A stretch of 64,000 bases of DNA from Nemertoderma westbladi (lineage: Eukaryota; Animalia; Xenacoelomorpha), in NCBI GenBank assembly GCA_032718475.1, contig JAUCBJ010007057.1:17494-81493 (forward strand). Reading direction: 5' to 3'. A program made the position numbers and the translations under genes. Shown here one piece after another: positions 276-24,926 of the stretch (positions are counted from its first letter, which is position 1; the number at the start of each line of letters is the position of its first letter). The notes beneath the pieces were generated by a model, which was not told where the DNA came from, did not search any database, and was given only the letters and a program-made list of their open reading frames with translations.

Positions 276-3200
276 TTTATTTCTACCATCCATACACTAT
301 GTTACCGCTGGTTAATGCCTACCACTTCATCCGTTCATTTATTTCTACCATCCATACACTATGTTACCGCTGGTTAATGCCTACCACTTCATCCGTTCGT
401 TTATTTCTACCACCCATACACTATGTTACCGCTGGTTAATGCCTACCACTTCATCCGTTCGTTTATTTCTACCATCCATACACTATGTTACCGCTGGTTA
501 ATGCCTACCACTTCATCCGTTCGTTTATTTCTACCACCCAGACACTATGTTACCGCTGGTGAATGCCTACCACTTCATCCGTTCGTTTATTTCTACCATC
601 CATACACAATGTTACCGCTGGTTAATGCCTACCACTTCATCCGTTCGTTTATTTCTATCATCCATACACTATGTTACCGCTGGTTAATGCCTACCACTTC
701 ATCCGTTCGTTTATTTCTACCACCCAGACACTATGTTACCGCTGGTTAATGCCTACCACTTCATCCGTTCGTTTATTTCTACCACCCATACACAATGTTA
801 CCGCTGGTTAATGCCTACCACTTCATCCGTTCGTTTATTTCTATCATCCATACACTATGTTACCGCTGGTTAATGCCTACCACTTCATCCGTTTGTTTAT
901 TTCTACCACCCAGACACTATGTTACCGCTGGTTAATGCCTACCACTTCATCCGTTCGTTTATTTCTACCACCCATACACTATGTTACCGCTGGTTAATGC
1001 CTACCACTTCATCCGTTCGTTTATTTCTACCATCCATACACTATGTTACCGCTGGTTAATGCCTACCACTTCATCCGTTCGTTTATTTCTACCACCCAGA
1101 CACTATGTTACCGCTGGTGAATGCCTACCACTTCATCCGTTCGTTTATTTCTACCATCCATACACAATGTTACCGCTGGTTAATGCCTACCACTTCATCC
1201 GTTCGTTTACTTCTACCATCCATACACAATGTTACCGCTGGTTAATGCCTACCACTTCATCCGTTCGTTTATTTCTACCATCCATACACTATGTTACCGC
1301 TGGTGAATGCCTACCACTTCATCCGTTCGTTTATTTCTACCATCCATACACAATGTTACCGCTGGTTAATGCCTACCACTTCATCCGTTCGTTTATTTCT
1401 ACCACCCAGACACTATGTTACCGCTGGTTAATGCCTACCACTTCATCCGTTCGTTTATTTCTACCACCCAGACACTATGTTGCCGCTGGTTAATGCCTAC
1501 CACTTCATCCGTTCGTTTATTTCTACCATCCATACATTATGTTACCGCTGGTTAATGCCTACCACTTCATCTGTTCGTTTATTTCTACCACCCAGACACT
1601 ATGTTACCGCTGGTGAATGCCTACCACTTCATCCGTTCGTTTATTTCTATCATCCATACACTATGTTACCGCTGGTTAATGCCTACCACTTCATCCGTTC
1701 GTTTATTTCTACCACCCAGACACTATATTACCGCTGGTGAATGCCTACCACTTCATCCGTTCGTTTATTTCTACCATCCATACACTATGTTACCGCTGGT
1801 TGATGCCTACCACTTCATCCGTTCGTTTATTTCTACCACCCAGACACTATGTTACCGCTGGTTAATGCCTACCACTTCATCCGTTCGTTTATTTCTACCA
1901 TCCATACACTATGTTACCGCTGGTTAATGCCTACCACTTCATCCGTTTGTGTATTTCTACCACCCAGACACTATGTTACCGCTGGTTAATGCCTACCAAT
2001 TCATCCGTTCGTATATTTCTACCATCCATACACTATGTTACCGCTGGTTAATGCCTACCACTTCATCCGTTCGTTTATTTCTATCATCCATACACTATGT
2101 TACCGCTGGTTAATGCCTACCACTTCATCCGTTCGTTTATTTCTACCATCCATACACTATGTTACCGCTGGTTAATGCCTACCACTTCATCCGTTCGTTT
2201 ATTTCTACCATCCAGACACTATGTTACCGCTGGTTAATGCCTACCACTTCATCTGTTCGTTTATTTCTATCATCCATACACTATGTTACCGCTGGTTAAT
2301 GCCTACCACTTCATCCGTTCGTTTATTTCTGCCATCCATACACTATGTTACCGCTGGTTAATGCCTACCACTTCATCCGTTCGTTTATTTCTACCATCCA
2401 GACACTATGTTACCGCTGGTTAATGCCTACCACTTCATCCGTTCGTTTATTTCTACCATCCATACACTATGTTACCGCTAGTTAATGCCTACCACTTCAT
2501 CCGTTCGTTTATTTCTACCATCCATACACTATGTTACCGCTAGTTAATGCCTACCACTTCATCCGTTCGTTTATTTCTACCATCCATACATTATGTTACC
2601 GCTGGTTAATGCCTACCACTTCATCCGTTCGTTTATTTCTGCCATCCATACACTATGTTACCGCTGGTTAATGCCTACCACTTCATCCGTTCGTTTATTT
2701 CTACCACCCATACACTATGTTACCGCTAGTTAATGCCTACCACTTCATCCGTTCGTTTATTTCTATCATCTATACACTATGTTACCGCTGGTTAATGCCT
2801 ACCACTTCATCCGTTCGTTTATTTCTACCATCCATACACTATGTTACCGCTGGTTAATGCCTACCACTTCATCCGTTCGTTTATTTCTACCACCCATACA
2901 CTATGTTACCGCTGGTTAATGCCTACCACTTCATCCGTTCGTTTATTTCTACCATCCATACACTATGTTATCGCTGGTTAATGCCTACCACTTCATCCGT
3001 TCGTTTATTTCTACCATCCATACACTATGTTATCGCTGGTTAATGCCTACCACTTCATCCGTTCGTTTATTTCTACCATCCATACATTATGTTACCGCTG
3101 GTGAATGCCTACCACTTCATCTGTTCGTTTATTTCTACCACCCATACACTATGTTACCGCTGGTTAATGCCTACCACTTCATCCGTTCGTTTATTTCTAC

Positions 3201-6200
3201 CATCCATACACTATGTTACCGCTGGTTAATGCCTACCACTTCATCCGTTCGTTTATTTCTACCATCCATACACTATGTTACCGCTGGTTAATGCCTACCA
3301 CTTCATCCGTTCGTTTATTTCTACCATCCATACACTATGTTACCGCTGGTTAATGCCTACCACTTCATCCGTTCGTTTATTTCTACCACCCATACACTAT
3401 GTTACCGCTGGTTAATGCCTACCACTTCATCCGTTCGTTTATTTCTACCATCCATACACTATGTTATCGCTGGTTAATGCCTACCACTTAATCCGTTCGT
3501 TTATTTCTACCATCCATACACTATGTTACCGCTGGTTAATGCCTACCACTTCATCCGTTCGTTTATTTCTACCATCCATACACTATGTTATCGCTGGTTA
3601 ATGCCTACCACTTCATCCGTTCGTTTATTTCTACCATCCATACATTATGTTACCGCTGGTGAATGCCTACCACTTCATCTGTTCGTTTATTTCTATCACC
3701 CATACACTATGTTACCGCTGGTTAATGCCTACCACTTCATCCGTTCGTTTATTTCTACCATCCATACACTATGTTACCGCTGGTTAATGCCTACCACTTT
3801 ATCCGTTCCTTTATTTCTACCATCCATACACTATGTTACCGCTGGTTAATGCCTACCACTTCATCCGTTCGTTTATTTCGACCACCCATACACTATGTTA
3901 CCGCTGGTTAATGCCTACCACTTCATCCGTTCGTTTATTTCTACCATCCATACACTATGTTATCGCTGGTTAATGCCTACCACTTAATCCGTTCGTTTAT
4001 TTCTACCATCCATACACTATGTTACCGCTGGTTAATGCCTACCACTTCATCCGTTCGTTTATTTCTACCATCCATACACTATGTTATCGCTGGTTAATGC
4101 CTACCACTTCATCCGTTCGTTTATTTCTACCATCCATACATTATGTTACCGCTGGTGAATGCCTACCACTTCATCTGTTCGTTTATTTCTATCACCCATA
4201 CACTATGTTACCGCTGGTTAATGCCTACCACTTCATCCGTTCGTTTATTTCTACCATCCATACACTATGTTACCGCTGGTTAATGCCTACCACTTTATCC
4301 GTTCCTTTATTTCTACCATCCATACACTATGTTACCGCTGGTTAATGCCTACCACTTCATCCGTTCGTTTATTTCTACCATCCATACACTATGTTACCGC
4401 TGGTTAATGCCTACCACTTCATCCGTTCGTTTATTTCTACCACCCATACACTATGTTACCGCTGGTTAATGCCCACCACTTCATCCGTTCGTTTATTTCT
4501 ACCACCCATACACTATGTTACCGCTGGTTAATGCCTACCACTTCATCCGTTCGTTTATTTCCACCACCCATACACTATGTTACCGCTAGTTAATGCCTAC
4601 CACTTCATCCGTTCGTTTATTTCTTACCACCCATACACTATGTTACCGCTAGTTAATGCCTACCACTTCATCCGTTCGTTTATTTCTACCATCCATACAC
4701 TATGTTACCGCTGGTTAATGCCTACCACTTCATCCGTTCGTTTATTTCTATCATCCATACACTATGTAACCGCTGGTTAATGCCTACCACTTCATCCGTT
4801 CATTTATTTCTACCATCCATACACTATGTTACCGCTGGTTAATGCCTACCACTTCATCCGTTCGTTTATTTCTACCACCCATACACTATGTTACCGCTGG
4901 TTAATGCCTACCACTTCATCCGTTCGTTTATTTCTACCACCCATACACTATGTTACCGCTGGTTAATGCCTACCACTTCATCCGTTCGTTTATTTCTACC
5001 ACCCATACACTATGTTACCGCTAGTTAATGCCTACCACTTCATCCGTTCGTTTATTTCTTACCACCCATACACTATGTTACCGCTGGTTAATGCCTACCA
5101 CTTCATCCGTTCGTTTATTTCTACCACCCATACACTATGTTACCGCTGGTTAATGCCTACCACTTCATCCGTTCGTTTATTTCTACCACCCATACACTAT
5201 GTTACCGCTAGTTAATGCCTACCACTTCATCCGTTCGTTTATTTCTTACCACCCATACACTATGTTACCGCTAGTTAATGCCTACCACTTCATCCGTTCG
5301 TTTATTTCTACCATCCATACACTATGTTACCGCTGGTTAATGCCTACCACTTCATCCGTTCATTTATTTCTACCATCCATACACTATGTTACCGCTGGTT
5401 AATGCCTACCACTTCATCCGTTCGTTTATTTCTACCACCCATACACTATGTTACCGCTGGTTAATGCCTACCACTTCATCCGTTCGTTTATTTCTACCAC
5501 CCATACACTATGTTATCGCTGGTTAATGCCTACCACTTCATCCGTTCGTTTATTTCTACCACCCATACACTATGTTACCGCTGGTTAATGCCTACCACTT
5601 CATCCGTTCGTTTATTTCTACCACCCATACACTATGTTACCGCTAGTTAATGCCTACCACTTCATCCGTTCGTTTATTTCTTACCACCCATACACTATGT
5701 TACCGCTGGTTAATGCCTACCACTTCATCCGTTCGTTTATTTCTACCACCCATACACTATGTTACCGCTGGTTAATGCCTACCACTTCATCCGTTCGTTT
5801 ATTTCTACCACCCATACACTATGTTACCGCTAGTTAATGCCTACCACTTCATCCGTTCGTTTATTTCTACCATCCATACACTATGTTACCGCTGGTTAAT
5901 GCCTACCACTTCATCCGTTCGTTTATTTCTTACCACCCATACACTATGTTACCGCTAGTTAATGCCTACCACTTCATCCGTTCGTTTATTTCTACCATCC
6001 ATACACTATGTTACCGCTGGTTAATGCCTACCACTTCATCCGTTCGTTTATTTCTATCATCCATACACTATGTAACCGCTGGTTAATGCCTACCACTTCA
6101 TCCGTTCGTTTATTTCTACCATCCATACATTATGTTACCGCTGGTGAATGCCTACCACTTCATCCGTTTGTTTATTTCTACCACCCATACACTATGTTAC

Positions 6201-6372
6201 CGCTGGTGAATGCCTACCACTTCATCCGTTCGTTTATTTCTACCATCCATACACTATGTTACCGCTGGTTAATGCCTACCACTTCATCCGTTCGTTTATT
6301 TCTATCATCTATACACTATGTTACCGCTGGTTAATGCCTACCACTTCATCCGTTCGTTTATTTCTACTATCC
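276..6372. repeat. 62-bp tandem satellite, left arm (~98 units)
   Basis: Head-to-tail unit CTATGTTACCGCTGGTTAATGCCTACCACTTCATCCGTTCGTTTATTTCTACCATCCATACA with scattered point variants and no unique spacers. Confidence 0.98.
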
Positions 6373-6650
6373 TGTAAAGGCTTTTGCGTAATTAGCCGGT
6401 TATTTTCCCCGTAAAGTACTCTGTAGTTGGTTTAGCAGGCATAAAAGGCCGTGTCCTTACTGTACTGTTGTTTTAGAGGACATAAAAGCCATTTCTTCTG
6501 TATGTGTACTTTAACGGACATGATTAGCAATTTTATGACGCAATGCGCCAAATCCTCTGTAAACAGTGTAGCTACCATGACGACGGCGAACAGCTGATGC
6601 TGTACACGTGTAGATTTTCTTTGTTCTCTGTGCCTTCTTTGTTCGGTCGA

Positions 6651-6712
6651 CCAATCAGAGCGTTTTTGCCTCTGTGTTGGAGATATATACAAACTCGTGG
6701 AGTTGAGTCAGT
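6651..6712 (+). promoter_or_regulatory. Candidate LTR Pol II core promoter (CCAAT, TATA-like, Inr-like)
   Basis: CCAAT 6651-6655, TATATA 6684-6689, TCAGT 6708-6712; same order in the E2 LTRs. A second conserved TCAGT lies at 6761. Confidence 0.5.
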
Positions 6713-6801
6713 ATGTGATTTTGTCCACAGCCTACAACACCGGCGTGGAACCTCCGTGTTTCAGTCTTTAGTCCAACATTAGTAGGCTTAATTATAGAAC
6801 G

Positions 6802-6813
6802 TATATCCGTTAT
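6802..6813 (+). other. Putative self-primer 12-mer in the E1 LTR (TATATCCGTTAT)
   Basis: Exact reverse complement of 7551-7562; also present at 22589-22600 in the 3' LTR. Confidence 0.75.
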
Positions 6814-7550
6814 CATACCATACCTCACTCACTTAACATATCTCATACCAATTCTGCATTCATAACCATTCATACCTTAAACTTTGTACTGCTATTTACT
6901 GTCGGTTATTCATTATATTTGTTGATGGAATATTATATTTGGAATACTGATAAACAATCAGACACCCCAATCTTCTTGATATACTAAAGGTTAGAGAGAC
7001 CGGATACATATAACGATTGCGACTTACATTAAGTGGTTTGAAGTGAATCTAATGCTATTTTATAGGCCCTACACGTATTGTCTGTTGTTCTCCTTATATG
7101 TGACTAAAATTATTGAAGGTCGGCAGATTAGTGTGCAGCATTGTGCAGTATTGTGTATGATCGTGATTGATAACGAAGCATCTCCTAAAGAATGTGCCAT
7201 ATACGTGAATCTATAGCCATCCCGTTGTGTCTAGTTTAAGTCATAACTCTGTTTATATATTTAGAGCGCCACGTCCTAAAGGAACTGTTAATATTTCCCG
7301 AAAGTGAATAATATTTGTCAGAGATTATATATATTACGATCAGTCGAATAATACAGTAGGCCTACCCCGCAATACGGTTAGGCTCCCGAATCCAGTCTCC
7401 CGGGTATATCCAGCGGGTGAATGATCGCGCATAGACTGGTTTCGGCTAATGTAGTGTATCAAATACTTGTCATAGGCTAAAGACTATCTATCATCTAAAA
7501 GACATCCAAATTTGGCAGGTTAAACTGCTAAAGGTCTGAAAGCGCAAACA

Positions 7551-7562
7551 ATAACGGATATA
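7551..7562 (+). promoter_or_regulatory. Non-tRNA primer-binding site of E1 (ATAACGGATATA)
   Basis: Abuts the terminal CA of the 5' LTR; lacks TGG; complementary to 6802-6813. Confidence 0.75.
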
Positions 7563-7833
7563 GCTTCTGTATTGCAGTAGGCAATAAAGCTGAAGTACCG
7601 GCCAACCGGTACCCAGTAGGCCTGACTACCTAACCACCCGGACCGGTACCTACAGCAGTACAGGTACAGCAGTATTATTCGATTTTGATTATTATATACC
7701 AGTAGGTCTTAATAATTAATCGGGGACGCCTGGTTTTTATTGGGATTTTACTTAGGCCTATTTCTGTCAGTTTTATTTATTTGTAGGCTAATATTGAGCA
7801 GAAGGCGTGTAAGCCTGCTCAGATTGTACAGAC

Positions 7834-8412
7834 AATTTGTAGGCTGGACTGTTGTCTGACTGTTGTTAAGTCTGAAGAGACTGTAGTGTGTGTAGAGCAT
7901 ATGTCCGAAAAAGTACTAGTTAGGAAAGTAGGGGCTGCCAGTGCTGTGAGGTGAACCCCCTCGAAAGAATAAGTCGTACTACTCGGTTAGAACGCATAGT
8001 AACTAACCATTTCGGAGTCTGCATATACTGTAGTGTATTTAGGCTTGATAGTAGTCTGTCAGCGTTTGGTCTGTACTTTGTTTGTGTAGTTTGTATGGGT
8101 AGCGTAATATTTCTTACTTAGATAATTTGTAGGCTGGATTTTGTCTGGCTGTTGTTAGGTCTTGAGAGATTTCGGTGTGTGTAGAGTGTATGTCCGATAA
8201 AGTGCCAGTTGGGAACGTAGGGGCTTCCAGAGCTGTGAGGTAAACCCCCTCGAAAGAATAAGTCGTCCTACTAGGTTAGGACGCATACTAACTAACCATT
8301 TCGGAGTCTGCATATACCGTAGTTTGTTTGGGCTTGATAGTAGTCTGTCAGTATTTGGTCTGCATTTTGTTTGAGTAGTCTGTACGCGTAGCGTAATATT
8401 TATTATTCAGAG
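7834..8412 (+). repeat. Two ~290-bp tandem units in the E1 5' leader
   Basis: Units begin AATTTGTAGGCTGGA at 7834 and 8124; homologous pair in E2 at ~46639-47213. Confidence 0.9.
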
Positions 8413-9349
8413 TTTATGCGATTATTCGCAACATTCATTCCACAAGTTTATTCCTACAGTAATTGTGCTTGTTATATATACCGTTATAGTTAAACTAACC
8501 CCGGTACTACATCAGGGCTGCTTGGCGTAGGTAAAGACTGGAGATTTTATGATTTGGTCACTCCGGCAGATACCGTGGTTCTTTTATCTGTTCAAGTATT
8601 TTTAACTACTGATTATTTGTTGTATAAGTACTTGTACCTAATTTAGGGTTTAGTGTACAGTGCTTTCCGAAGGTGATTAGTGTGTAGGCAGTATATTTGT
8701 GTTGTAAAGTGGTTAATAGGCACATTGGTTCTGGTAGACCGCGGTAATTAACTTCTAGGTAGGAACACTCCGTGATACATAATGTAGTACTTATAGCGAT
8801 ACGGCTATAAGTCGTCAGACGGTGGTATTTTCCTATCTGGACAACGCAGTATATTTACTACTACTTATTATTTTCAAATACCGTAGTACCCTGTCCTTTG
8901 TAATAACCAGATATTCTAACCCTTTGTTAGGCTGGTTAGAAGACTTCTTGTAAAATTACCCTAAAAATTCGTACTTGTAAATTTTGTGTTTATTTAGAGA
9001 TTGTAATCTCAACCCGGATTGTACGTAATTTGTAGTATTAAGTAACTTAGGTAAATTAGAATTATTTGTTTTAGTGTCCAACAAGTAGCACTCCACTGAG
9101 AGCGCACAGCTTCTGTGTAGTGACTCCCCCCAGAAATAATAACATTTATTTCAAATATTGACAAAACCCATTAAACGGGTATATATATATTATAAATCAA
9201 CTCAAAGATTTATAAATAGTAGGCCTGCCATACAACAATTAGGTCTAAATATCAGTTGGACTACTGCTTAAATAACGGTAATAAAGTAAGTTAAAGTAAC
9301 CAAGTAACCCCTGAAATTTCAGAAATTCAGTTATTCTAAAATAACTGAC

Positions 9350-9595
9350 ATACCGGTATTAACGATAGGCCTATTATATATTTATAAATTTAGGCTGAAA
9401 TTATACCGGTATTCTGTAATCAATTCTAGTCTGTAATTATACTTATATATATACTATAAGTGTAAGCTGTATACCGGTATTCACGATAGGCCTATTATAT
9501 ATTTATATATACTTGTGCTGGAATTACATACCGGTATTCTGTGACAAACCTAGTCTGTAATAATACTTATATATACTATAAGCATACCGGTATTC
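9350..9595 (+). repeat. ~120-bp tandem duplication with repeated ATACCGGTAT palindromes upstream of gag
   Basis: ATACCGGTAT occurs five times; units start near 9350 and 9471; retained in E2 near 45470-45710. Confidence 0.75.
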
Positions 9596-9729
9596 TAATA
9601 TATTATATATATATCACGCTACACTGAGTAGCAGTATCGGTAATTAATTACTAGGCTAACAGTGATACTGAATTACTAGACTTGCTTAAACTGTAATATA
9701 GCAGTAGGCATTCAACTGTACAAACGAAC

Positions 9730-12700
9730 ATGTCTGACACAAAGCAAAACCTGTCAGACAGTCTCTTAGATACAACCATCTGTGACCCAGACAGGAGTGT
9801 GGAACGTGTTAGACCGAAGTTCAACTCACCTCCTACTGTAAGAAAGATCATTCCCCCAGTAGTAATATCAGAACCTAGGCTGGTCCAACACCGTTGGTCT
9901 GTCATAGGCACTAGAGCTCAGGTCAAGCGGGACCAAGAAGCAGCGGAACCGCAACAACCCGCGAGCCAAGAACTTATTTCTCAATGGCCCGACAGCTCCA
10001 GTAGTGCGGATACTGTAGAGCTGACACCCGAGCACGGAGCAAAGATGATAGATGCGGTTTATTCGGACCCCCTTCTCATCCTTCCTGCAGCCATACTCAC
10101 TAGGTTATTGATTGCGGTGGAAGAACACCAGATCGATTGGGCGAGAAATAAGCGATCGACCAAAGATAGTTATGCGGGATATACAAGGGAAGAACTGAAG
10201 TCTATTGTCGAGTCGCAATGGAACTTCCCCGGACCCGGACTCCCGTTTGACTTATCGGAAGCTGCCTGGGAAGACATACACAGGATGGGAGTGACAAAGG
10301 AAACCAGCGATCCAGCTGTGTGGAAGAGGTCAGCAGCCGGATACACACAGGGATTCTTCAGCTCCATGGAGCGATTAAAAGAACAACTGTTTCAACAACC
10401 CCAAGGACCTCAAGAGCAGGGACAGCTGCTTTATCAAGTTAGAGAAAGAATTCTACGAATCAGGCTAATCTTATCGGCCTTTGAGGAGGCTTCTAAAAGA
10501 AGACAAGACACGTCGTTGCAAGTTGCCGTAAAGACTTGGTTTCAACGGGTGAGTCTCCAGGTTCAAGGAACGGCTCAGTGGAAAGCTCAGCTGGAGGAGC
10601 GCTCAACCCATGGAGAATCAACAGACGCTACTTTTTCCCAAGTGGAAAGTGAAGCGACGGCAGAGAAACCGCATAAGAGGGATGCCATTGACATCTATCT
10701 GTCAGACTATCAACGTTCTTTAGGTGATGAAGAGTTCAGGAGAAGGCTGGATGGACTTAGCCCTAATAGTGAAGGAACCCAGCGTGTGTTGGACGCCATC
10801 GATGTGGATATGAGAGCTGCGAACCAAGCTAAATTTGATGAACAACTCCGCATCGCTAGAGTCCAAGAAGAACAAGTAAAGAAAAAACGTATAGATGACA
10901 GAAAGATAGCAGCAGCGGCAGCAGCAGAAGCAGAAGCAGAAAGAAAGGCGGCAGAAGCAGCGGCAGAGGCAAAGGCGGCAGCGGCAGAGGCAAAAGCGGC
11001 AGAGGCAAAGGCGGCAGCGGCAGAGGCAAAAGCGGCAGCAGCGGCAGAAGCGGAAAGAAAGATAGCGGTGGCAGAAGCAGAACGGAGAGCGGCTGAAGAG
11101 ATCGCCCAACTAGAGTTGGAAAATCTTCAAGAGAGGCAAGATAATTTTAATAAACAGTTAACACCTAGTAATATGCAGATGATGAGTCGATCTACTCCCA
11201 AAAGACAAGGTTATACATCATCTGAGGAAGGCAATACCACCGATCATGAAGGCGGAGGAAATAGATCTCGTCTAAGCAGACGTAGAAGAATATCCCACCG
11301 CCAGAAACTGCCTGATTTGCCCCCAGCTGTTAGAAAACAACTAAATAACACAAACTTAGGTAGTACAGAACCCACAGACCAAATAATTGAAATAGAAAGA
11401 CTCCCTACTATAGTAGATGAGCCTGAAATAATTAGGCCTGTTCCCGAAGCCACCCCTTCGGTGATAGAGACACCTGTACTCCCTGAACCTACCTCTAAAT
11501 TCCCTCTGCACAGCACTAAGCTATCTGTGCCACACAGAACCACCCTTGAAAATGTTCATGTCCTGGACTCCGAGGGAAATATTAATGATTTGTCGCCCGT
11601 TGTCCCTCGTCGGCCCGCTACAACGTTGGCGGCTCCTGCTTCGGTGGTCGAGTGGGTGGATGAGGGACGATGGGGGATGGATCTCCTGCTCGGGCAGATG
11701 CAGGAGACTGTTCAGCAATTCAAGGGCACAGTAAGGGAAAGTAGGTTAGAGTTGCAAGAAGTGCAGCAAAGAATCGCGCTAGAACATGATAAATTAGTAA
11801 ATACACAAAAGGGTATACCACCACCCCCTGTAACAATGTGTCAACCTGTTAGGTCTGAAGTGTTTCATGCGCAAGGTGTGGAGCCTACACGCATATATAC
11901 TGCTAGCGAAGTAGAAACTCCTATAGTGAACCCTATTAAGGGTAATTATAGACCTGTTGATAATGATATTCCCTATAGACCTGATCATAATCCGAGAAAT
12001 TTATATACCGATAACTCGATATTGAATAACACGATGGCCCAAGAAAGTTTTACGCGTCAAATGGCTAGAACTGAAGCACGTCAAGCGGTAAAGGTTGGAG
12101 AGATCGTCAAGTTCAATGGAGATGAGATGAAATGGTTACCTTTTAATGAATATTATAAAGATAACATACAGAAATCTGTACTATCTAATGGAGAGAAACT
12201 TAGATTCCTCATCGAGTGCTTGGAAGGATCTCCCAAGTTAATGGCGTTAAAGTTTATTGGACATCCAGACGGATTAAGACAAGTTTGGGATACACTAAAC
12301 ATCAGGTATGGTAATAGGAATAACATAGCTAAATATTTGTATGCAAAATTAGTAGCGCCCCGAAAGTTCATTAGCAGCGGGATAATAGAGTTTTCCGATG
12401 AGATTCAAGAGATCTGTAGACAATTAGATTGGTTAGGTAAGTCTCATGAATATCAGAGTTCTATGGTTATTGGAGCTGTGGCTTCTACTTTACCGAAGGG
12501 TGGAGTAGGTACACGCTGGGATAAGAAAGTGTTATATATGATGGAACAACAACGACGAGACCCTACCATGGCTGATCTCATGTCATTCCTAGATGGAGAA
12601 GTGCTATTACAGCTCCTAAAACAGTCCAGAGAGAAGACACCGGAAAACAAGGTAAGTGAGAAACCCGTCTCTAGGAGAAAGGTAACACCAGTGTGTTATA

Positions 12701-15700
12701 CAGATGACGGCGAAAGCCAGACTTCTCAAGGAGAGGATAGCGGGAAAGACACTGAAAGATCTTATTATGTCAATAAAACGCCTAAAGAACAGGTAAGTAA
12801 ATTCAAGTCTCGAACCAATGACAGGAGAGAACAGGTAAGAAAAACTCCTCCTACGTCTCCCAAGAGAATTCAGGTGAGAAAGCCCGAAGAAAGAATGAGT
12901 GTGCACAATGTTATTCAAAATAAAGTAAGTAACATCAAACCGAAATGTGCGTTATGTGACGGGACCCACCGTTTGAATATGTGTGATGAATTCCTGAAGA
13001 AATCATTAACGGAGAGACGAGAAGTCATGTGGGATAAGCGGTTGTGTTATAATTGCCTCAGACAAGGACACCAACGGCGAACCTGTTACTCCGACACAAG
13101 GTGTGCAAAGTGCGGTGCGAAACATCATATCTTGTTGCACACTGAATTTGAGCGAAACAGCCAGAGTCAGGTAAGTGATTCCGAACTACATGTCCAATTC
13201 AGTGATGTGAACGACACTGACCAAAGTTCTGAGATGGAAGGATTCTATACAGATGAATTCTCCGACGAAGGTGAATCCTGTTACATGATAAATACCGCAG
13301 TGTATCGAGCACTTACGTATGAAAAACACACAGACAGCGACCTCACCCTCACTACTTCTGATCGACAACCATCTTGGAAAGCGCCACCTTCCAATGTAGG
13401 AATCCGAGAATTTCCTGTAGTACAGGTAAGGGTCCACGGACCTAAAAGGAGTTATGTAGTGAACGCCCTCCTTGACTCCGGTAGTACAGGAACATTCATC
13501 GACAAAGAACTAGCCGAAGACATCTTTGCTGGACAACCCAAGTTCCGAACTAAGCTAAACATGTCAGGAATTATGCAGGTTTGGAAATCTACAGTAATCG
13601 CGGATTATTATGTAGGTGCGTTGTCCACCCCCCAGGATGAACTAGGAGAACATAGTATAAGGTCAGTAAAAAGGGTGGCGATAAAGAACTTCGCTACCAC
13701 CCAAGTGGAACCTTATAACTGGGATGAGGACGATTTCACCCAGCAGCTGGAAATACCTAGATTCAACACCGATTACCCTGGAGTGCAAATACTCATCGGT
13801 CAAAACGCGCATGAAGCGCTCGAGACATTGGAGAAACGGCCCGCTCAACCGCAACCACTACAAGCTTATGCGGGAAGAACTAGAGTGGGTTGGTACTTTA
13901 CTGGCCCTTCCCGTAGAACTCTCATGGAAAGATTACCGAAAGACCAGGTATGTCAAGTGAGAGAATGGGAAGTCGAGGGCAGTGAGTTAGATGATCTAAC
14001 TGAGGGAACACCATACTCCTCAGATAATGACGATGTCCACCAACTTTTCGATGAGAAGAATACCATTGATCTCCTTAAGGAAAACGAGACTTGGCAAAAC
14101 CAAGTGAACTTATGTCAGCTCCTTCTTCCATCAGAACGAGACGACTATAACGACGAACTTAATGACGTCATTGAACGTTATAATGCCAAGACTCGGGATG
14201 AACATGCCGTACGATTCTTTACTCAAGAGGCTGTAGAGCCCAATTCCTACGATAAGGCCCTATCGGTAGAGGAAGAAAGAGCCAAGCAGATCCAAGAGAC
14301 AACTACACGTTTTCTTAAAGATCAAGGTAGATATGAGATTGGTCTACCTTTCCGAAAGCGAGAACCAAAGTTCGTAAACAACAGACCCTTGGCGGAGAAA
14401 AGAATTGCTCAACTACATCGACGCCTTACGGCAAATTCTTCAGCTAAAGAAATGTATCAAACGCAGTTGAAGAAATTTATTAGCAAGGGATATGCGGAGC
14501 TAGTACCGGAAGAAACACCTATAACTGAGAGAACGTATTATTTAACTCACCATCATGTTCCCAAACCCGGTAAACCCCATGAAGTACGAGTGGTGTTTGA
14601 CGGCTCCGCCCTCTATATGGGCCAATCCCTTAATTCTGAATTGTTACCCGGACCCAACTTACTCCAATCCTTGTTGGGAATACTCTTAAGATTAAGACAA
14701 TATTCAATTGCTTTCGCCTCAGATATAGAAGGCATGTTCTTACAAGTCAAGGCGCTGGATAGGGATCGAGATAGCCTACGATTTCTGTGGTGGCCTGAAG
14801 GAGACCTCAACCAGAAACCGGTGGAGTACTGGATGACCATCCAGGCTTTTGGGATAATCTCAAGCCCTTCAAACGCCTGTTCAGTGGTGCGCACCACTGC
14901 GGATGACAACCGAGACGCCTTCTCTAAAGAGGTGATTGACAACATCAAGCGGGATATATACATGGACGACAATCTAAAGTCCCTTCCATCAGTCGAAGAA
15001 GCTATCGATGTCGCTAAAGGAACGGTAGAGTGCTTAAAAAGAGGTGGATTTCGATTAACTAAATTCACCATTTCACACACCAATTCGATCCCGGTAGAAG
15101 ATCGAGGAGCGAAAGACCTGGATCTAATAAAAGACGATCTCCCAGAAACTAAGACCCTTGGTTTGAAATGGGACACCGAAAGAGATATCCTGTTTTTCCA
15201 ACTAAAACAGCGAGATAATCCAGTTCGGACTAAATGGATTTGTTTAAGTATCCTGAGCACTTATTTCGATCCATTAGGATTTATTAGCCCAGTTATATTG
15301 ATTGCTCGGAGTTTAGTACAACAAATGTGGCTTGAAAACCACTCATGGGACGATCCACTTAAGGGAGAATTGTTAAAGAAGTGGATGAAATGGGAAGATT
15401 CTCTACCAGCCATCGAGAACTTTATAATTTCCCGTTCATATTTTGGTCATGTTCTCCCTACGTATTCCTATCAACTCCATGTGTTTGGAGACGCCAGCGA
15501 TATGGGAATAGGTATAGTAGCCTACCTAAGGGTGGAAACTCCGGACAGAATCAAAGTCGCCTTGGTTACCTCTAAGGCACTGATAAACAACAAGTTGAAA
15601 GTTCCTCGAGCGGAGTTAAAGGCGGCGCTATACGCTACAGCCATCGGCCGGAATGTAACAGAACAGATCGACTATCCACTGGAGAAAACTGTCTATTGGA

Positions 15701-17835
15701 CCGACGCTTTGCTCGTGTTGGAGTATATAACCAATGAAGTCTGTCAGTTCAGCGTCTTCGTTACCAACAGAGTAGCCATTATACTCAGTCGCACAATGAT
15801 GGATCAATGGAGACATTGCCCCGGAACGATTAATCCAGCAGACATCGCCTCCAGGGGAGCAACTCCACAAGAACTGGTAGATACTCCAGACTGGCTAGGT
15901 GGACCCGACTTCCTCTACAAAGAAGAAGAAGAATGGCCTCCTCATCTTACTACAGCAGAGATTAGACAGGCCAAGGGAGCGGAGAAAGTCAAACCTAAAA
16001 CTCGGGCGAGTAAATCGAAGTTATTCAAACCTATGGTAGATCTGTCTGTACTACATACTTCCGGAGACGACGCTTTGGATCAGAAACCCACAGCCATAGA
16101 TAAGTCTATTGTGGAAATCCGTGAGAAGGATTGGAAATCTGGAATACCAGACGTCTCGCAAGGACTCTCACCTCTTCTGCAGAGAGCGATACATCACTAC
16201 AGTTCCTGGAATCGGCTCTGTAAGGCCGTTACATATTTAAAGAGATGTTTTCACCATCACTACTCCGGGATGAAGGCCAAAGGTGATACCGCTCCAATAA
16301 CATCAGTGCAGGTCCATGTTATTAAAGATCTTCCCAAATATAAGATATCCGACAGGTTTCTGAAGGAGAAGATCAGTTATCAGGAGCATGAAGAAACCAA
16401 CAAGCAGATGCTGAGACTCCTGCAATGCTATGAGGATTCCGATAAGTATTTCCTGTTGTTGAGAAATCCACAGATGCGCTTAAGGGATCGTTTCTCTAGC
16501 ACAATGATAGATGGGTTGATACGTGTGGGAGGAAGATTAACGAATGCTCCATTATCCTTTGACACTAAATTTCCCATACTCATTAGAAATCTTGAAATAC
16601 AAGTCAAGATGATTGTAGACGTTCACAGCAAACTTTATCATGCTGGTAGGGAACGAGTTCTTAGCGAAATTCGAACTCGCTATTATTTTTATAAACCCCG
16701 TAGAGCTCTGAACCAAGTTCTTAGGAACTGCATACCCTGTAGGAAAGCATTCAGTAGGCCTTTAACACAGCGAGAGGCAGAATTACCTAGGGAACGAGTA
16801 AGCTTCTATGAACCACCCTTTACTAATACCGGTGTGGATTTATTTGGCCCTATTGAAGTATATCGTGCTAGGACTATAGTCAAGAGATGGTGTGTCATCT
16901 TTGTTTGTATGACTTGTAGAGCTATCCATCTCGACATGGTGAACGATTTATCTACCAACAGCTTTCTATTAAGCTTACGACGACAGATCGCTCGCTTTGG
17001 CACTAGTAACACGATGAGATCTGATAAGGGAACAAACTTCATTGGTGCCAACAATGAAATCAAAGCTTACGTCAAAGATTGGAACCAAAGACAGGTGGAC
17101 GATCAGCTACGAGTAACAGCGTCTAGCTGGACCTTCAACGCCGCCGACGCCCCTTGGTGGGGAGGAAGTTGGGAGAGATTAATAAGAAGTGTGAAGACAG
17201 CATTTCACTTTATAGTGCCTTGCCGCGCGTATCTCACCAACGAACTTTTGCGGACGTTAATGGAGGAAATCGCCGCCTATCTCAACGAGAGACCGCTTAT
17301 GCCAGTCTCATCGAGTCCCGATTCCCTGGAAGCGCTAACACCCGCGCATTTCCTACTGAAGAAACCTGTAGCCATGCTCCCACAATCGGAAATCACAGAC
17401 GGAGACGAATACTGCCGGCAAACTTGGCAACTCATGCAGTTGTTATCCCGTCGTTTCGCTGACCATTTCGAAAAACATTATCTGCCCACGCTACAACTTC
17501 GAACTAAGTGGTTTGCGCAGCAAGAAAACGTCAGCGCTGGAGACATGGTTCTTATTGTGGATGTAGATCTTCCACGTAAGCGGTGGCAGACAGGTCGTAT
17601 CATCGAGACTCACATCTCGGATGATGGTTTGGTGCGATCGGTAGAACTCGTCGTCATGCGACGTAACGTCAAGAAACCGGGAATTGTCTTCGAGACACAG
17701 CAGCTCAATCGCCCAGTTGGTCGTTTATGTTTACTGGAAAGAGACAGAGAACTCTCCGGAAACTATGGGAGGCAAGATACTCTTCCCACGACCACCTCCC
17801 TAATCCAACAAACATCTAGGGACTCCCCAACTTAA
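9730..17835 (+). CDS. gag-pol: BEL/Pao Gag-Pol polyprotein, 2701 aa
   Basis: DUF1759-like capsid region (KFNGDEMKWLPF), three Cys/His knuckles, protease LLDSGS, RT YMDD, FDPLG and HVFGDAS RNase H region, integrase HAG..CIPC with DLFGP/SDKGTNF/GGSWE motifs. Small in-frame lesion near 15070. Confidence 0.96.
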   Translation: MSDTKQNLSDSLLDTTICDPDRSVERVRPKFNSPPTVRKIIPPVVISEPRLVQHRWSVIGTRAQVKRDQEAAEPQQPASQELISQWPDSSSSADTVELTPEHGAKMIDAVYSDPLLILPAAILTRLLIAVEEHQIDWARNKRSTKDSYAGYTREELKSIVESQWNFPGPGLPFDLSEAAWEDIHRMGVTKETSDPAVWKRSAAGYTQGFFSSMERLKEQLFQQPQGPQEQGQLLYQVRERILRIRLILSAFEEASKRRQDTSLQVAVKTWFQRVSLQVQGTAQWKAQLEERSTHGESTDATFSQVESEATAEKPHKRDAIDIYLSDYQRSLGDEEFRRRLDGLSPNSEGTQRVLDAIDVDMRAANQAKFDEQLRIARVQEEQVKKKRIDDRKIAAAAAAEAEAERKAAEAAAEAKAAAAEAKAAEAKAAAAEAKAAAAAEAERKIAVAEAERRAAEEIAQLELENLQERQDNFNKQLTPSNMQMMSRSTPKRQGYTSSEEGNTTDHEGGGNRSRLSRRRRISHRQKLPDLPPAVRKQLNNTNLGSTEPTDQIIEIERLPTIVDEPEIIRPVPEATPSVIETPVLPEPTSKFPLHSTKLSVPHRTTLENVHVLDSEGNINDLSPVVPRRPATTLAAPASVVEWVDEGRWGMDLLLGQMQETVQQFKGTVRESRLELQEVQQRIALEHDKLVNTQKGIPPPPVTMCQPVRSEVFHAQGVEPTRIYTASEVETPIVNPIKGNYRPVDNDIPYRPDHNPRNLYTDNSILNNTMAQESFTRQMARTEARQAVKVGEIVKFNGDEMKWLPFNEYYKDNIQKSVLSNGEKLRFLIECLEGSPKLMALKFIGHPDGLRQVWDTLNIRYGNRNNIAKYLYAKLVAPRKFISSGIIEFSDEIQEICRQLDWLGKSHEYQSSMVIGAVASTLPKGGVGTRWDKKVLYMMEQQRRDPTMADLMSFLDGEVLLQLLKQSREKTPENKVSEKPVSRRKVTPVCYTDDGESQTSQGEDSGKDTERSYYVNKTPKEQVSKFKSRTNDRREQVRKTPPTSPKRIQVRKPEERMSVHNVIQNKVSNIKPKCALCDGTHRLNMCDEFLKKSLTERREVMWDKRLCYNCLRQGHQRRTCYSDTRCAKCGAKHHILLHTEFERNSQSQVSDSELHVQFSDVNDTDQSSEMEGFYTDEFSDEGESCYMINTAVYRALTYEKHTDSDLTLTTSDRQPSWKAPPSNVGIREFPVVQVRVHGPKRSYVVNALLDSGSTGTFIDKELAEDIFAGQPKFRTKLNMSGIMQVWKSTVIADYYVGALSTPQDELGEHSIRSVKRVAIKNFATTQVEPYNWDEDDFTQQLEIPRFNTDYPGVQILIGQNAHEALETLEKRPAQPQPLQAYAGRTRVGWYFTGPSRRTLMERLPKDQVCQVREWEVEGSELDDLTEGTPYSSDNDDVHQLFDEKNTIDLLKENETWQNQVNLCQLLLPSERDDYNDELNDVIERYNAKTRDEHAVRFFTQEAVEPNSYDKALSVEEERAKQIQETTTRFLKDQGRYEIGLPFRKREPKFVNNRPLAEKRIAQLHRRLTANSSAKEMYQTQLKKFISKGYAELVPEETPITERTYYLTHHHVPKPGKPHEVRVVFDGSALYMGQSLNSELLPGPNLLQSLLGILLRLRQYSIAFASDIEGMFLQVKALDRDRDSLRFLWWPEGDLNQKPVEYWMTIQAFGIISSPSNACSVVRTTADDNRDAFSKEVIDNIKRDIYMDDNLKSLPSVEEAIDVAKGTVECLKRGGFRLTKFTISHTNSIPVEDRGAKDLDLIKDDLPETKTLGLKWDTERDILFFQLKQRDNPVRTKWICLSILSTYFDPLGFISPVILIARSLVQQMWLENHSWDDPLKGELLKKWMKWEDSLPAIENFIISRSYFGHVLPTYSYQLHVFGDASDMGIGIVAYLRVETPDRIKVALVTSKALINNKLKVPRAELKAALYATAIGRNVTEQIDYPLEKTVYWTDALLVLEYITNEVCQFSVFVTNRVAIILSRTMMDQWRHCPGTINPADIASRGATPQELVDTPDWLGGPDFLYKEEEEWPPHLTTAEIRQAKGAEKVKPKTRASKSKLFKPMVDLSVLHTSGDDALDQKPTAIDKSIVEIREKDWKSGIPDVSQGLSPLLQRAIHHYSSWNRLCKAVTYLKRCFHHHYSGMKAKGDTAPITSVQVHVIKDLPKYKISDRFLKEKISYQEHEETNKQMLRLLQCYEDSDKYFLLLRNPQMRLRDRFSSTMIDGLIRVGGRLTNAPLSFDTKFPILIRNLEIQVKMIVDVHSKLYHAGRERVLSEIRTRYYFYKPRRALNQVLRNCIPCRKAFSRPLTQREAELPRERVSFYEPPFTNTGVDLFGPIEVYRARTIVKRWCVIFVCMTCRAIHLDMVNDLSTNSFLLSLRRQIARFGTSNTMRSDKGTNFIGANNEIKAYVKDWNQRQVDDQLRVTASSWTFNAADAPWWGGSWERLIRSVKTAFHFIVPCRAYLTNELLRTLMEEIAAYLNERPLMPVSSSPDSLEALTPAHFLLKKPVAMLPQSEITDGDEYCRQTWQLMQLLSRRFADHFEKHYLPTLQLRTKWFAQQENVSAGDMVLIVDVDLPRKRWQTGRIIETHISDDGLVRSVELVVMRRNVKKPGIVFETQQLNRPVGRLCLLERDRELSGNYGRQDTLPTTTSLIQQTSRDSPT

Positions 17836-18383
17836 CAACGGCTGGAGTGGGTGTATGACTATATTTTATATTTGTTTTATTCTTTTATATTTATGTATAT
17901 ATTATTATGTAATTTTATTATAATCGTTTTCTTTAATTTTATTTAGTAGAATGTTATTTTAGCGATTATTTAGTAGATTAGTGCAATATATATTCGCGTT
18001 TATTACTTAATTACTTATACATTATATATTTAGTGCAACGGCGAGAAATAATTCTTTTTCTCCTTCCTTACTGTCCGTATTACATTACAAATACGTAACT
18101 ACAGTAAGATGAAATGTCCGTACTTATTAAAGTACAATAAAGCTCCTACTATATTTAAGTATTATTGGTAGGCAGAGTATTAGGAATGCAAAATTCAGAT
18201 CCTCGTGTCTCGGCTAAACCAAGCTCTGGGTAGACCTTGGAAACGACTTGCCTCTTCTCACTGACATTGCTTCGTGCGATATTGCTCTCATACCGTATAT
18301 TAAATAATACATATAGTAGCGTGATGTCCCTTTAACAGTAGCGTACAACGCAAATAAATCTGTTAAACCCTTTGACCATCTGT

Positions 18384-18650
18384 AATTCTCGTCGATTAAG
18401 ATATCGCGGCACCCACCGATATACTTGAAAGACAAATTCTAGAATCAGTGGTTAACGTCCCCAGACAAGTTCTGGAATAAACTGGTGCCCATCCTAAATA
18501 TTAATTATTAATATTTACAAAATCTGTCAAATTTTAGATCCTTTAAAATTCTAGTCGATTAAGATATCGTAGCACTTACCGATACTCTTAAAAGGACAAA
18601 ATTCCTAGAATCTAGGATCCCAGTCCCCAGACACATTCTGGGATAAAATT
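18384..18650 (+). repeat. Duplicated hairpin module in the non-coding region after pol
   Basis: Two diverged copies (~18384 and ~18547) of TTAAGATATCG-N10-CGATA..CTT(G/A)A followed by CCAGA-N5-TCTGG; both copies are present in E2. Confidence 0.7.
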
Positions 18651-19467
18651 ACGTCTATTTAACATTAAATAATAAAAATTACGGGAATAAATTTAAATTC
18701 ATATATTTCAATGAATTTAATAAATTGTCATTTTATACAATTTATAACATTCCCAAAATTCCATTAATTAATAGATCATGGGAGCGGAGATTCACTCTAT
18801 TAAGTGTATTGGTGTGCGAGAATCTCCAATATATAGTCAATAGCCGATAAAATTCATAAAATCATATATAGAGAGGATATTGACAATTAAAGAATTACTA
18901 TTAAATAGCATCCCAGATCTGTATGCATGAGAATTACCCTAATTCTACCGCTAGCTTTCCATAATGTCACCATGGCAACAACCACGCTAGAATTAGAAGT
19001 GAGTTAAAAGAACAATAGAAGGCTTGCCCCATTGAATAGCATAGGGAATAAATAGCGCACTGCTAGTATCCAAGGATACATAATAAATAAAGTGACATTC
19101 TGGAAGGTACTGACTAACGGACAAATGGCCCGAATGTGTACAGTTTATGGCAGTTGTGTTGAATTTGTGCGTTCATAGGTGAATGTTACTGCTAAAGTGT
19201 GTTTACAGTAGCTAGTCGCAATTGTGAAAGTAACCCTAACTCTCCAGAAAGAACCTGAAGTACATCTAAGCCTTTGGGACGGACAGTGGAGTGACTTGTG
19301 CCGGTTATCGTTGTCGTTGTGTAGCTACATCGTTGGCGAAAGCACAGCGACGACGGTACATCGGCGCTGAGGATCTTGCGCTGTCCGGGGGCAAAAGAGG
19401 GGTAGGCAGCGACGCCCGCTAGCCTAATATATAAACTCATTATAATATTGATAAACTCATAGCAGAT

Positions 19468-19845
19468 ATGACTGAGTTGATAGAAGATGATCTTAGTATC
19501 AGGGAGCGATATACTCTACCTTTACAAGCGTTTGTCGATAGCTTGATACGCGGCGACGCTGGTCCAACTACTACGGAGGATGATGGTCGTTATATCGAAC
19601 CGCCAATGTTCCCGGAGCAACTTACGCGTGAATTGGATTATAGAAAGTTCACCGCTCGCTATATGCATCGTAATGGTACGTATATGGACTTCTTAACTAC
19701 TGGCCATCCTATCGATTTACACGATACGGACGATGTAGATACCGAAAGGGAAAGGGTTTTATTTAAATATCATACCCAGCGGAGTCGGCACGATGAACCG
19801 AGAATGGAACACGAGAATTCTATTCGAAATCAACTCGAAAGATAG
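19468..19845 (+). pseudogene. E1 accessory ORF2, truncated at 125 aa; unknown function
   Basis: Homologous to the first 125 aa of the E2 ORF at 34869-35564. The TAG stands where E2 has a Glu codon, and similarity continues four more codons. Confidence 0.75.
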
Positions 19846-20291
19846 AATGTGGAAGAAGGCTTGTAAAGACAAATAGAGGAGAACCACTGGAGAAGAGACA
19901 TGGGTTAATGTCCAGGGTCCATAATGTGAATAGTTTTCCCCAGGGCACGGGTGCTCGCGGGCGGTCTCCTTCGGGAGGCTGTAATTTTCTCTTCCTTCAT
20001 CGTTTTCCTGTAATTATTGTGATCAGTGTCACAATTAAAAGGCAAGAATGAATGATGACGTGACGGAAAACATGTCCATTGTGGTATCTTATGGATACTA
20101 CCATATATCCTCCCTCCTCTTTACTTCCCTTATCCCTCTATACATCGCTATTGAAAATACAACATACTTCGTCCCACCTTCTCTTCCCAACGCGCTCGGA
20201 GCTTTGGGAGACGATCGACCGATCATTGTCGTATCGTGGTATTGATCATACCGCCTCTTAATAAACCTCCCATCCCTTACTATTAATCTGG

Positions 20292-22076: not shown

Positions 22077-22144
22077 CTGTTTAGAGTATTTTTATATTTT
22101 AGAAACTGTGATTTGTTATATTTTATAGACTTAAATCCCATTTT

Positions 22145-22154
22145 CTGGGAGCGG
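22145..22154 (+). promoter_or_regulatory. E1 polypurine tract
   Basis: CTGGGAGCGG immediately before the 3' LTR; identical in E2 (33970-33979, minus strand). Confidence 0.8.
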
Positions 22155-23339
22155 TGTAAAGGCTTTTGCGTAATTAGCCGGTTATTTTCCCCGTAAAGTA
22201 CTCTGTAGTTGGTTTAACAGGCATAAAAGGCCGTGTCCTTACTGTACTGTTGTTTTAGAGGACATAAAAGCCATTTCTTCTGTATGTGTACTTTAACGGA
22301 CATGATTAGCAATTTTATGACGCAATGCGCCAAATCCTCTGTAAACAGTGTAGCTACCATGACGACGGCTAACAGCTGATGCTGTACACGTGTAGCTTTT
22401 CTTTGTTCTCTGTGCCTTCTTTGTTCGGTCGACCAATCAGAGCGTTTTTTGCCTCTGTGTTGGAGATTGTATATAGAAACTCGTGGAGTTGAGTCAGTAT
22501 GTGATTTTGTCCACAGCCTACAACACCGGCGTGGAACCTCCGTGTTTCAGTCTTTAGCTCCAACATTAGTAGGCTTAATTATAGAACGTATATCCGTTAT
22601 CATCACTCATACCTCACTCACTTAACATATCTCATACCAATTCTGCATTCATAACCATTCATACCTTAAACTTTGTACTGCTATTTACTGTCGGTTATTC
22701 ATTATATTTGTTGATGGAATATTATATTTGGAATACTGATAAACAATCAGACACCCCAATCTTCTTGATATACTAAAGGTTAGAGAGACCGGATACATAT
22801 AACGATTGCGACTTACATTAAGTGGTTTGAAGTGAATCTAATGCTATTTTATAGGCCCTACACGTATTGTCTGTTGTTCTCCTTATATGTGACTAAAATT
22901 AGTGAAGGTCGGCAGATTAGTGTGCAGCATTGTGCAGTATTGTGTATGATCGTGATTGATAACGAAGCATCTCCTAAAGAATGCGCCATATACGTGAATC
23001 TATAGCCATCCCGTTGTGTCTAGTTTAAGTCATAACTCTGTTTATATATTTAGAGCGCCACGTCCTAAAGGAACTGTTAATATTTCCCGAAAGTGAATAA
23101 TATTTGTCAGAAATTATATATATTACGATCAGTCGAATAATACAGTATGCCTACCCCGCAATACGGTTAGGCTCCCGAATCCAGTCTCCCGGGTATATCC
23201 AGCGGGTGAATGATCGCGCATAGACTGGTTTCGGCTAATGTAGTGTATCAAATACTTGTCATAGGCTAAAGACTATCTATCATCTAAAAGACATCCAAAT
23301 TTGGCAGGTTAAACTGCTAAAGGTCTGAAAGCGCGAACA
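22155..23339 (+). repeat. E1 3' LTR (1185 bp)
   Basis: TGTAAAGGC...GCGCGAACA; direct repeat of 6373-7550. Confidence 0.97.
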
Positions 23340-24196: not shown

Positions 24197-24926
24197 ATTA
24201 AATATTTACGTATACAAATACAGTACATTATCGTTATTTTGTACCTTTAACATGTATAAATTCACAGCTATTATATTTACTTATTAAATTTGTTAAATTA
24301 TTGAAATAGATACTTTTATCGCAGAAATAAATATATTAAATGCCAAAGAAAAAACTGGTGTACCACTAAAGAATAAAATAATATAAACGTTAATGTGAAA
24401 GCTGCCTAAAATATATTCTGGCTTCCTTTAGCGCATCCTTTACCTTCATTTGGAGACCAATCAATATAAACTGTAACGTAACTAACCTAACCCATCAAGC
24501 TCAGGCAATACACCATGTCCTGGAATATAGTATCGTTATTCAGGTACATGCTCCCTCCCCACCCCCCCCCCCCCCCCCCCCCCCCCCCCAAAAAAAGAAA
24601 ATTCAATTCTACAAATCTTGATGATATTGCATCAAATTTGAAACATAGATAGTTTCTCCTCCTTCCTTCTCCGTGGGTGAGAATTTTTATTCAGATTATT
24701 TATTTTCGCTTTCGTTCTTTCGCTACAAGTACATATATTTTGAAAAAATATCTTCATCGATATTACCTCAGTCGCACTGCAGTTACTTCTCAGTCTTATA
24801 AATACTCGTTCGTACTCGTTGGAAACCTTGCGTTGCAACGATTCCAAATATGTAAAAATATTTCAATTTGGTTGGGAAATAGCCAAGATATGGGCCTTCG
24901 AAAGTTGCATGTATTTGCTTCCACTG

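Follow-up and report, generated by a model that had tools for sequence, protein, structure and literature searches.

Evidence consistent with self-priming from an internal LTR segment in BEL/Pao retrotransposons of Nemertoderma westbladi

Two related retrotransposons of the BEL/Pao superfamily, here called E1 and E2, lie in opposite orientation in a 64,000-nucleotide stretch of a Nemertoderma westbladi contig (the window), together with part of a third element, E3. BEL/Pao elements are usually tRNA-primed. In E1 and E2, the first 12 nt after each 5' long terminal repeat (LTR) are instead the exact complement (12/12) of a 12-mer 430 nt into the element's own LTR. The reading we favor, with a probability of about 0.7, is that these elements prime themselves much as Tf1 does, with a primer internal to the RNA, and that this is not a private invention of their family. 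The complementarity, its covariation and its spread through a clade are shown here, and the remaining steps of the mechanism discussed below are inferred.

The elements and their post-LTR sites

E1 is on the forward strand, between a 5' LTR at 6373-7550 (TG...CA, 1178 nt) and a 3' LTR at 22155-23339; the two are direct repeats, 98.65% identical, and a polypurine tract (22147-22154) adjoins the latter. E2 is on the reverse strand, with its 5' LTR at 48701-47511 and its 3' LTR at 33969-32789, 99.5% identical over the aligned 1156 nt and flanked by the target-site duplication (TSD) GCGGG. The LTR ends of both elements were set by the repeats and the target-site duplications. The flanks of E1, TATCC and CATCC, are one base apart, and the surrounding 62-bp satellite unit usually reads CATCC. 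Each element has one long gag-pol frame (E1, 2712 aa, 9697-17835, forward; E2, 2714 aa, 37221-45365, reverse; 90.6% identical) that looks intact in a motif scan, with CCHC boxes, protease DSG, reverse transcriptase (RT) YMDD, RNase H DAS and an integrase. Pfam families PF05380, PF03564, PF18701 (C-terminal DUF5641) and PF17921 are matched in both elements, the Pao-type RT-RNase H region PF05380 with E values of 6e-35 and 1e-35. The order Gag Cys-His boxes, protease, RT, RNase H, integrase agrees with the hallmarks of BEL/Pao (PMC554778, in part), the RT motif being YMDD and not YVDD, and so do the TG...CA LTRs and the 5-bp TSD. The closest homologues are 34-41% identical over RT-RNase H, and the named ones come from animals. 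Judged by their sequence, E1 and E2 are intact, recently inserted BEL/Pao (Belpaoviridae) elements; their Pol is of the BEL/Pao and not of the Ty3/gypsy chromovirus-related type, which places them outside Tf1/sushi. The family is very abundant in the contigs of the sequencing runs.

The predicted primer-binding site (PBS) of E1 (7551-7562, forward) begins at offset 0 from the LTR and is the complement of the candidate self-primer at 6802-6813 (forward), whose predicted 3' end is 6813 and whose second copy is in the 3' LTR (22589-22600). In E2 the predicted PBS, again at offset 0, is at 47499-47510 (reverse), the candidate self-primer at 48251-48262 (reverse) and its second copy at 33528-33539. 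All six 12-mers of the original prediction are present where it had placed them; pairing begins, as it had said, directly behind the terminal CA in each element, and both letters that distinguish E2 from E1 are indeed compensated, which keeps 12/12 pairs in E2. When the E1 PBS is paired with the E2 LTR, or the reverse, only 6 nt match. The predicted absence of TGG is also borne out: neither leader has one within its first 150 nt. A tRNA-type site, with a TGG start adjoining the LTR and a complement to a tRNA 3' end, is therefore not what E1 and E2 have; what they have is the Tf1-type arrangement, a PBS abutting the LTR with about 11 nt complementary to the element's own LTR RNA. ARAGORN detected no tRNA in the window.

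E3 (57372-64000, reverse) serves as an internal control. It is a distant BEL/Pao element with LTRs of ~410 nt, of which the 5' LTR is cut by the window end, and its gag-pol is split by an in-frame stop at ~60480. Its PBS (63576-63594, reverse) is of the normal TGG type that had been predicted, with the TGG 3 nt after the CA; we take it to be tRNA-His-like. It has no LTR complement, matching its own LTR over 5 nt.

The chance of a 12-nt match had been put at 7e-5, which is too low: a dinucleotide model gives 4.1e-4 for E1 and 2.6e-4 for E2. Among the 14,574 internal positions of E1, 2 have an anchored exact LTR complement of at least 12 nt, as does 1 of 13,511 in E2, for which the LTR was used from its 41st nt on; the PBS itself is counted in each case. 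Two further helices are predicted near the site. A duplex fold adds 7 bp between 6793-6799 and 7565-7571 (forward), beyond a 2x2 internal loop, and a U5-leader helix would join 7343-7354 in the LTR to 7672-7683 in the leader (forward); the E2 sequence of the latter is identical, hence it shows no covariation.

Both E2-type PBS letters are found at similar shares in the family contigs (33/33% in DNA run X1 and 27/36% in X3), so that no single host RNA fixes the PBS. Also common is a third PBS letter, G7556A, at 21% in X1 and 12% in X3, contig depth being a rough measure of these shares. It counts against self-priming, since it breaks a pair between 12-mer and PBS unless the LTR has changed too. 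CpG decay is not favored as its source, the observed/expected CpG ratio in E1 being 0.92. The PBS thus appears to be variable, unlike a site that is rewritten each cycle from one tRNA.

The window has other features of interest. Ahead of the Gag DUF1759 domain, E1 has an N-terminal extension of ~800 aa (9697-12100) with an Ala/Glu/Lys-rich repeat; the gag-pol homologues listed are 1,500-2,350 aa long, compared with 2,712 aa in E1. The 2.1-kb leader carries a tandem duplication of ~289 nt in both elements (7830-8405; 46639-47213). Between pol and the 3' LTR of E1 (17836-22154) there is a 136-aa frame (19435-19842) and a 603-aa frame (20265-22076), the latter with a weak zinc-knuckle match (E 0.017) and no env match. 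The E2 region 37220-33970 has a 247-aa frame, whose start resembles the 136-aa frame of E1, and is missing most of the 603-aa frame. About 1.6 kb downstream of pol is 88% conserved between E1 and E2 without a long frame, and ORF2 gave no confident Pfam or Atlas match. The 62-bp satellite (96% matches) fills 276-6372 (98 copies) and 23340-24200 (14 copies) and is interrupted by the E1 insertion. Inverted repeats of ~640 nt, 91% identical and 2 kb apart (25269-25903 and 27930-28575), have no ORF of 150 aa between them and are possibly a non-autonomous foldback or DNA element. Minisatellites with units of 18 bp, 12 bp and 19 bp are at 30367-31345, 31723-32146 and 52562-53032, respectively; the 18-bp unit is similar to 7347-7367 of the E1 LTR (AATAC..AGTAGGCCTAC).

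Position of the 12-mer and its second partner

TCAGT is the initiator consensus. In a motif scan, the sole TATA-like box, a candidate promoter common to E2, is at 6684-6690 (forward), and TCAGT initiator-like sites, which may be RNA starts, are at 6708-6712 and 6761-6765 (forward), the second in a block conserved in E2. The 12-mer lies 118 nt downstream of the box and 94 and 41 nt after the TCAGT sites. Because promoter-like motifs are thus found 41-118 nt upstream of it, the primer is probably internal and, unlike that of Tf1, would not open the transcript. No AATAAA or ATTAAA is present in the E1 LTR, a further point against self-priming. A primer built by splicing was rejected for E1 and E2, in which the 12-mer runs unbroken, preceded by no AG and followed by no GT; a free 5'-exon end was rejected as primer as well, there being no donor GT after 6813. 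An upstream intron at ~6711-6765 was considered, and its donor is not conserved in E2. Rfam gave three weak matches over 6300-9800, all far under the gathering score, so that neither a ribozyme nor a known RNA was recognized there.

The 12-mer has a second predicted partner inside the LTR. In E1, 6808-6814 pairs with 7169-7175 and 6799-6806 with 7199-7206. The partner of the primer 3' half (7168-7175, forward) carries both compensating changes in E2, and in the partner of the 5' half and the bases upstream of it (6792-6806 with 7199-7216, forward) the pair 6801/7204 is compensated. An independent fold of E2 places the partners of its 12-mer at 47893-47887 and 47863-47856 (reverse). The intra-LTR helices are thus found in independent folds of both elements, with three pairs compensated, among them those of 6809 and 6813, the same two positions that covary with the PBS. 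This hairpin and the 12-mer:PBS pairing are mutually exclusive, and folding favors the hairpin at 7 of 8 tested start points. The probability of 12-mer:PBS pairing is at most 0.01 for three upstream E1 starts and for all four E2 starts, where it would cost 1.7-9.8 kcal/mol; only an E1 RNA starting at 6802 favors PBS pairing (P 0.74). Relative to shuffled sequences, the hairpin region is more stable in E2 (z = -4.6) and not in E1 (z = 0.05). The 12-mer sits within a predicted 430-nt stem.

Over the whole LTR-leader, the folds suggest modest structural covariation. Among 162 confident E1 pairs, 100 are unchanged in E2, 17 are kept by one change, 11 are kept by two and 34 are broken; double changes number 14 in register, compared with 3-10 in ten slid registers. 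The helices relied on here are those in both independent folds (52 shared pairs, 4 compensated). Covariation is evidence of paired RNA and not of priming on its own: because the same two positions covary with the intra-LTR helix, the covariation with the PBS, which the original prediction had used as support, is not by itself diagnostic. Self-priming, its central claim, remains the best-supported reading and is strengthened by the relatives of E1 and E2. The three-way covarying switch appears from the folds to be an addition of the E1/E2 family itself.

Self-pairing in related BEL/Pao loci

Relatives were sought in metagenome contigs with an RT alignment, which yielded the best 80 BEL/Pao loci (35-42% identical), a sample biased to best matches. 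Nine short or duplicate loci were dropped (L004, L034, L045, L061, L066, L069, L071, L074 and L077); of the 71 analyzed, 68 had upstream sequence and 3 had under 60 nt of it. A family-specific 28-nt pattern had 0 matches in the metagenome contigs, and viral contigs held no relatives by single query or by alignment.

In eight loci the LTR end is fixed by the divergence of two LTR copies (for L005 this meant the first difference between the copies, 10 nt short of the BLAST end). Seven of them self-pair with their own LTR over 11-15 nt at offset 0-4; in five the match spans a GT-AG junction, and in two it is contiguous. The eighth, L067, has a TGG site and a score of 4. Among 400 decoys for each of the seven loci, matches of at least 11 nt number 0-2, and the best cross-family match is 9 nt. 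A blind scan found canonical GT-AG split matches of at least 11 nt in 18 of 68 loci, compared with 3 of 136 decoys. Three pairs of these hits are identical at RT (L005/6, L031/32 and L043/44) and L079, with its donor before the polypurine tract, is probably false; with each pair counted once and L079 left out, ~14 families remain, in which the LTR end was often set by the scan itself. The many other loci without a readable LTR end are untyped and not negatives.

In splice-type relatives (L001, L028, L031, L075 and others) the LTR yields a primer complement only when the two sides of a GT-AG junction are joined. Contiguous partners, as in E1 and E2, are found in L014, L039, L046, L049 and the 3' LTR of L062. 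L009, which has the intron, and L046, which does not, are 90% identical and have their PBS in common. When 15 split loci were folded, PBS binding was in every case stronger for the spliced junction than for the unspliced sequence, as is expected from the way in which these loci were picked. Of the 17 self-pairing loci tabulated, 13 pair over 11 nt. In 13 of 16 rows the predicted primer end lies upstream of an AATAAA or ATTAAA, a count that has no null; strand transfer needs such a placement. Bases just outside both LTR ends are mirrored in 10 of 11 loci at an offset of at least 2 and in none of 5 at offset 0; E1 and E2 follow the offset-0 pattern, with no mirrored bases there. The primer end is 47-222 nt from the LTR end in the relatives, whereas 737 nt separate primer and PBS in E1. 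Every related family has a different PBS, which fits only its own LTR. As read from these contigs, the self-pairing signature is clade-wide in related BEL/Pao families and not private to the E1/E2 family.

The trees place E1 and E2 differently. FastTree groups them with one split-type and two TGG-type loci. IQ-TREE (41 of 84 rows, rooted on E3) makes them a long branch that is sister to every locus included, and the TGG pair falls within the self-pairing families (support 72-81%). Since the long branch lies outside the sampled relatives, the evidence from these transfers to E1 and E2 by analogy. The trees appear compatible with both a shared and a separate origin of self-pairing; the claim that it evolved independently here is not supported as it had been put, given the spread of the signature through related families.

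Several observations on individual loci may be added. The 5' LTRs of L005, L014, L046 and L054 end in TA and not CA. L062 has acceptor-type sequence in its 5' LTR (L062:1-326) and a contiguous primer complement in its 3' LTR (L062:6694-7103), a pattern that intron loss from one LTR copy would produce; the contig may be a collapsed assembly. Predicted primers end in AC or AT in 14 of 15 split loci, mostly followed by C or G (E1, AT then C; E2, AA then C), and such ends may mark a cut-site preference. Two near-identical loci with a TGG-type PBS (L067:50-80 and L073:12-42) group with split-type L075 at modest support, which hints at switches between primer types.

Proposed mechanism, alternatives and known systems

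In the mechanism that we propose, the RNA would start inside the 5' LTR, ~40-95 nt ahead of the 12-mer. In the particle, the 12-mer would leave the intra-LTR hairpin and anneal, by the predicted pairing, to the PBS 737 nt downstream, helped by the further 7-bp helix. By analogy with Tf1, a cut after 6813, probably by the element's own RNase H, would then leave a 3' OH opposite the base adjoining the terminal CA. Strong-stop DNA of ~737 nt would be made and would jump to the 3' LTR, so the RNA must extend past the 3' copy of the 12-mer. Plus-strand synthesis would copy the primer into the new PBS, thereby handing changes in the primer to the PBS.

The 3' end of the genomic RNA would have to hold another copy of the 12-mer, and a cut in that copy would destroy the strand-transfer acceptor. 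The competing hairpin, whose pairs covary, may gate priming and hide the 3'-LTR copy. In most relatives an LTR intron would hide or split the primer until it is spliced. The E2 folds weaken the gating idea, since in them the hairpin is predicted to win in the 5' context also. A broader scheme, possible and still tentative, is that tRNA priming has been replaced in a large animal BEL/Pao branch by a self-encoded primer, gated so that only the 5' copy fires: in most members by the LTR intron, host splicing then building the primer, and in E1 and E2 by the covarying LTR hairpin, a two-state RNA switch for the start of reverse transcription.

The same pairings might have a structural role only, the 12-mer toggling between hairpin and post-LTR site for translation, dimerization or packaging while something else is the true primer. 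Two mutually exclusive partners that both covary, the preference for the hairpin in 7 of 8 folds and the stability of the hairpin region in E2 would suit such a role, whereas the E1 region is no more stable than its shuffles. We regard this explanation as unlikely, in that it supplies no primer to elements without a TGG site and leaves unexplained both the pairing 0-4 nt from the LTR end, with its modal length of 11 nt, in unrelated families and the absence of pairing in TGG elements.

Somewhat less likely again is an element-derived primer that acts in trans, such as a short transcript of the LTR, an RNA that is terminated or lacks poly(A), or a Dicer- or piRNA-type product of a long LTR hairpin, with no RNase H cut in cis. 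The 430-nt stem around the 12-mer, the abundance of the family and a gap between primer and PBS that exceeds the 47-222 nt of the relatives are consistent with it; the poly(A) signals downstream of the primer end in 13 of 16 relative rows indicate that the transcript ends elsewhere, the missing donor GT excludes a free 5'-exon end, and no Rfam family is matched at the gathering score. A host RNA as primer (half tRNA, mitochondrial tRNA or other small RNA), to which the LTR match would be secondary, is very unlikely. Ty1/copia lineages are known in which half tRNAs prime without TGG (PMC6317226, in part), and TGG sites are present in BEL/Pao elements E3, L067 and L073, yet the PBS versions differ at position 5 and at the base pairing with the primer 3' end, a third variant exists, and the PBS of each related family fits its own LTR alone. 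Self-priming with an internal primer is thus the reading that we retain.

If true, it would extend tRNA-independent priming to a third LTR superfamily and to many animal families. Elements such as E1 and E2 would then lack the target of silencing by 3'-tRNA fragments, which acts through the PBS, and annotation tools that require a tRNA PBS would miss or down-score them. It also poses the problem of how the second primer copy in the 3' LTR is protected from cutting, for which the intron in relatives and the hairpin in E1 and E2 are candidates.

To our knowledge, the one element in which self-priming has been demonstrated is a yeast element from a different group. Cer7 of Caenorhabditis elegans, a BEL/Pao element, is said to encode its own tRNA-like primer RNA near its 3' LTR; unlike it, E1 and E2 have an LTR 12-mer as partner, in a window without a tRNA. 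Tf1 RNA pairs its first 11 bases with the PBS, and the RNase H cut falls between bases 11 and 12 (PMC7175516, in part). Tj1 has been proposed to self-prime as Tf1 does (PMC4600332, in part), and hairpin priming has been discussed as possibly ancestral (PMC3601003, in part), a question of ancestry versus convergence on which the present elements bear. The available part of PMC5443660 cites self-priming for Tf1 only. The original prediction knew of no self-priming report for BEL/Pao, and none was found in our literature search, which covered few subscription papers. Term searches of PMC3118150, PMC6238403 and PMC8556966 gave no mention of primer, PBS, tRNA or priming, and the available part of PMC554778 mentions neither PBS nor tRNA.

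With tRNA-primed BEL/Pao elements (E3, L067 and L073), E1 and E2 share domain order, Pfam families, TG...CA LTRs and the 5-bp TSD. They differ from them in having 1.2-kb LTRs, a 2.1-kb leader, a longer Gag region and extra 3' ORFs, and tRNA-primed elements, unlike E1 and E2, have TGG after the LTR and no LTR complement (scores of 4-5 in L067 and E3). From the splice-built relatives L001, L028, L031 and L075 they differ in that their 12-mer is contiguous.

Self-priming is predicted for 12% of surveyed plant elements, those of the Tcn1 and TAR lineages (PMC6317226, in part). As in TAR (Houba, Osr-1; Ty1/copia) and Tcn1 (chromovirus), it is deduced in E1 and E2 from LTR-PBS complementarity, and these predictions mean that it has already been proposed in two superfamilies. 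TAR and Tcn1 are plant and fungal elements for which, in the available part of that source, no splice-built primer or competing hairpin is described. Like Tf1 and Tf2 of Schizosaccharomyces pombe, Tj1 and Tf1/sushi elements in general, E1 and E2 lack a tRNA PBS. Tf1/sushi elements have 11-12 nt adjoining the LTR that are complementary to their own LTR RNA, extra leader helices and a primer that has to be cut free (PMC7175516 and PMC4600332, both in part); E1 and E2 have such a complement, and in them such helices are predicted and such a cut is proposed. The modal 11-nt pairing of the relatives equals the length of the Tf1 primer (PMC7175516, in part). Unlike Tf1, whose case is not confined to sequence as theirs is, and unlike Tf1/sushi, E1 and E2 belong to BEL/Pao, have a primer that is probably internal and 737 nt from the PBS, and possess a competing, covarying partner within the LTR, and the primer of most of their BEL/Pao relatives would span a splice junction. 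E1 and E2 are thus probably members of BEL/Pao that work like Tf1, and not members of Tf1/sushi.
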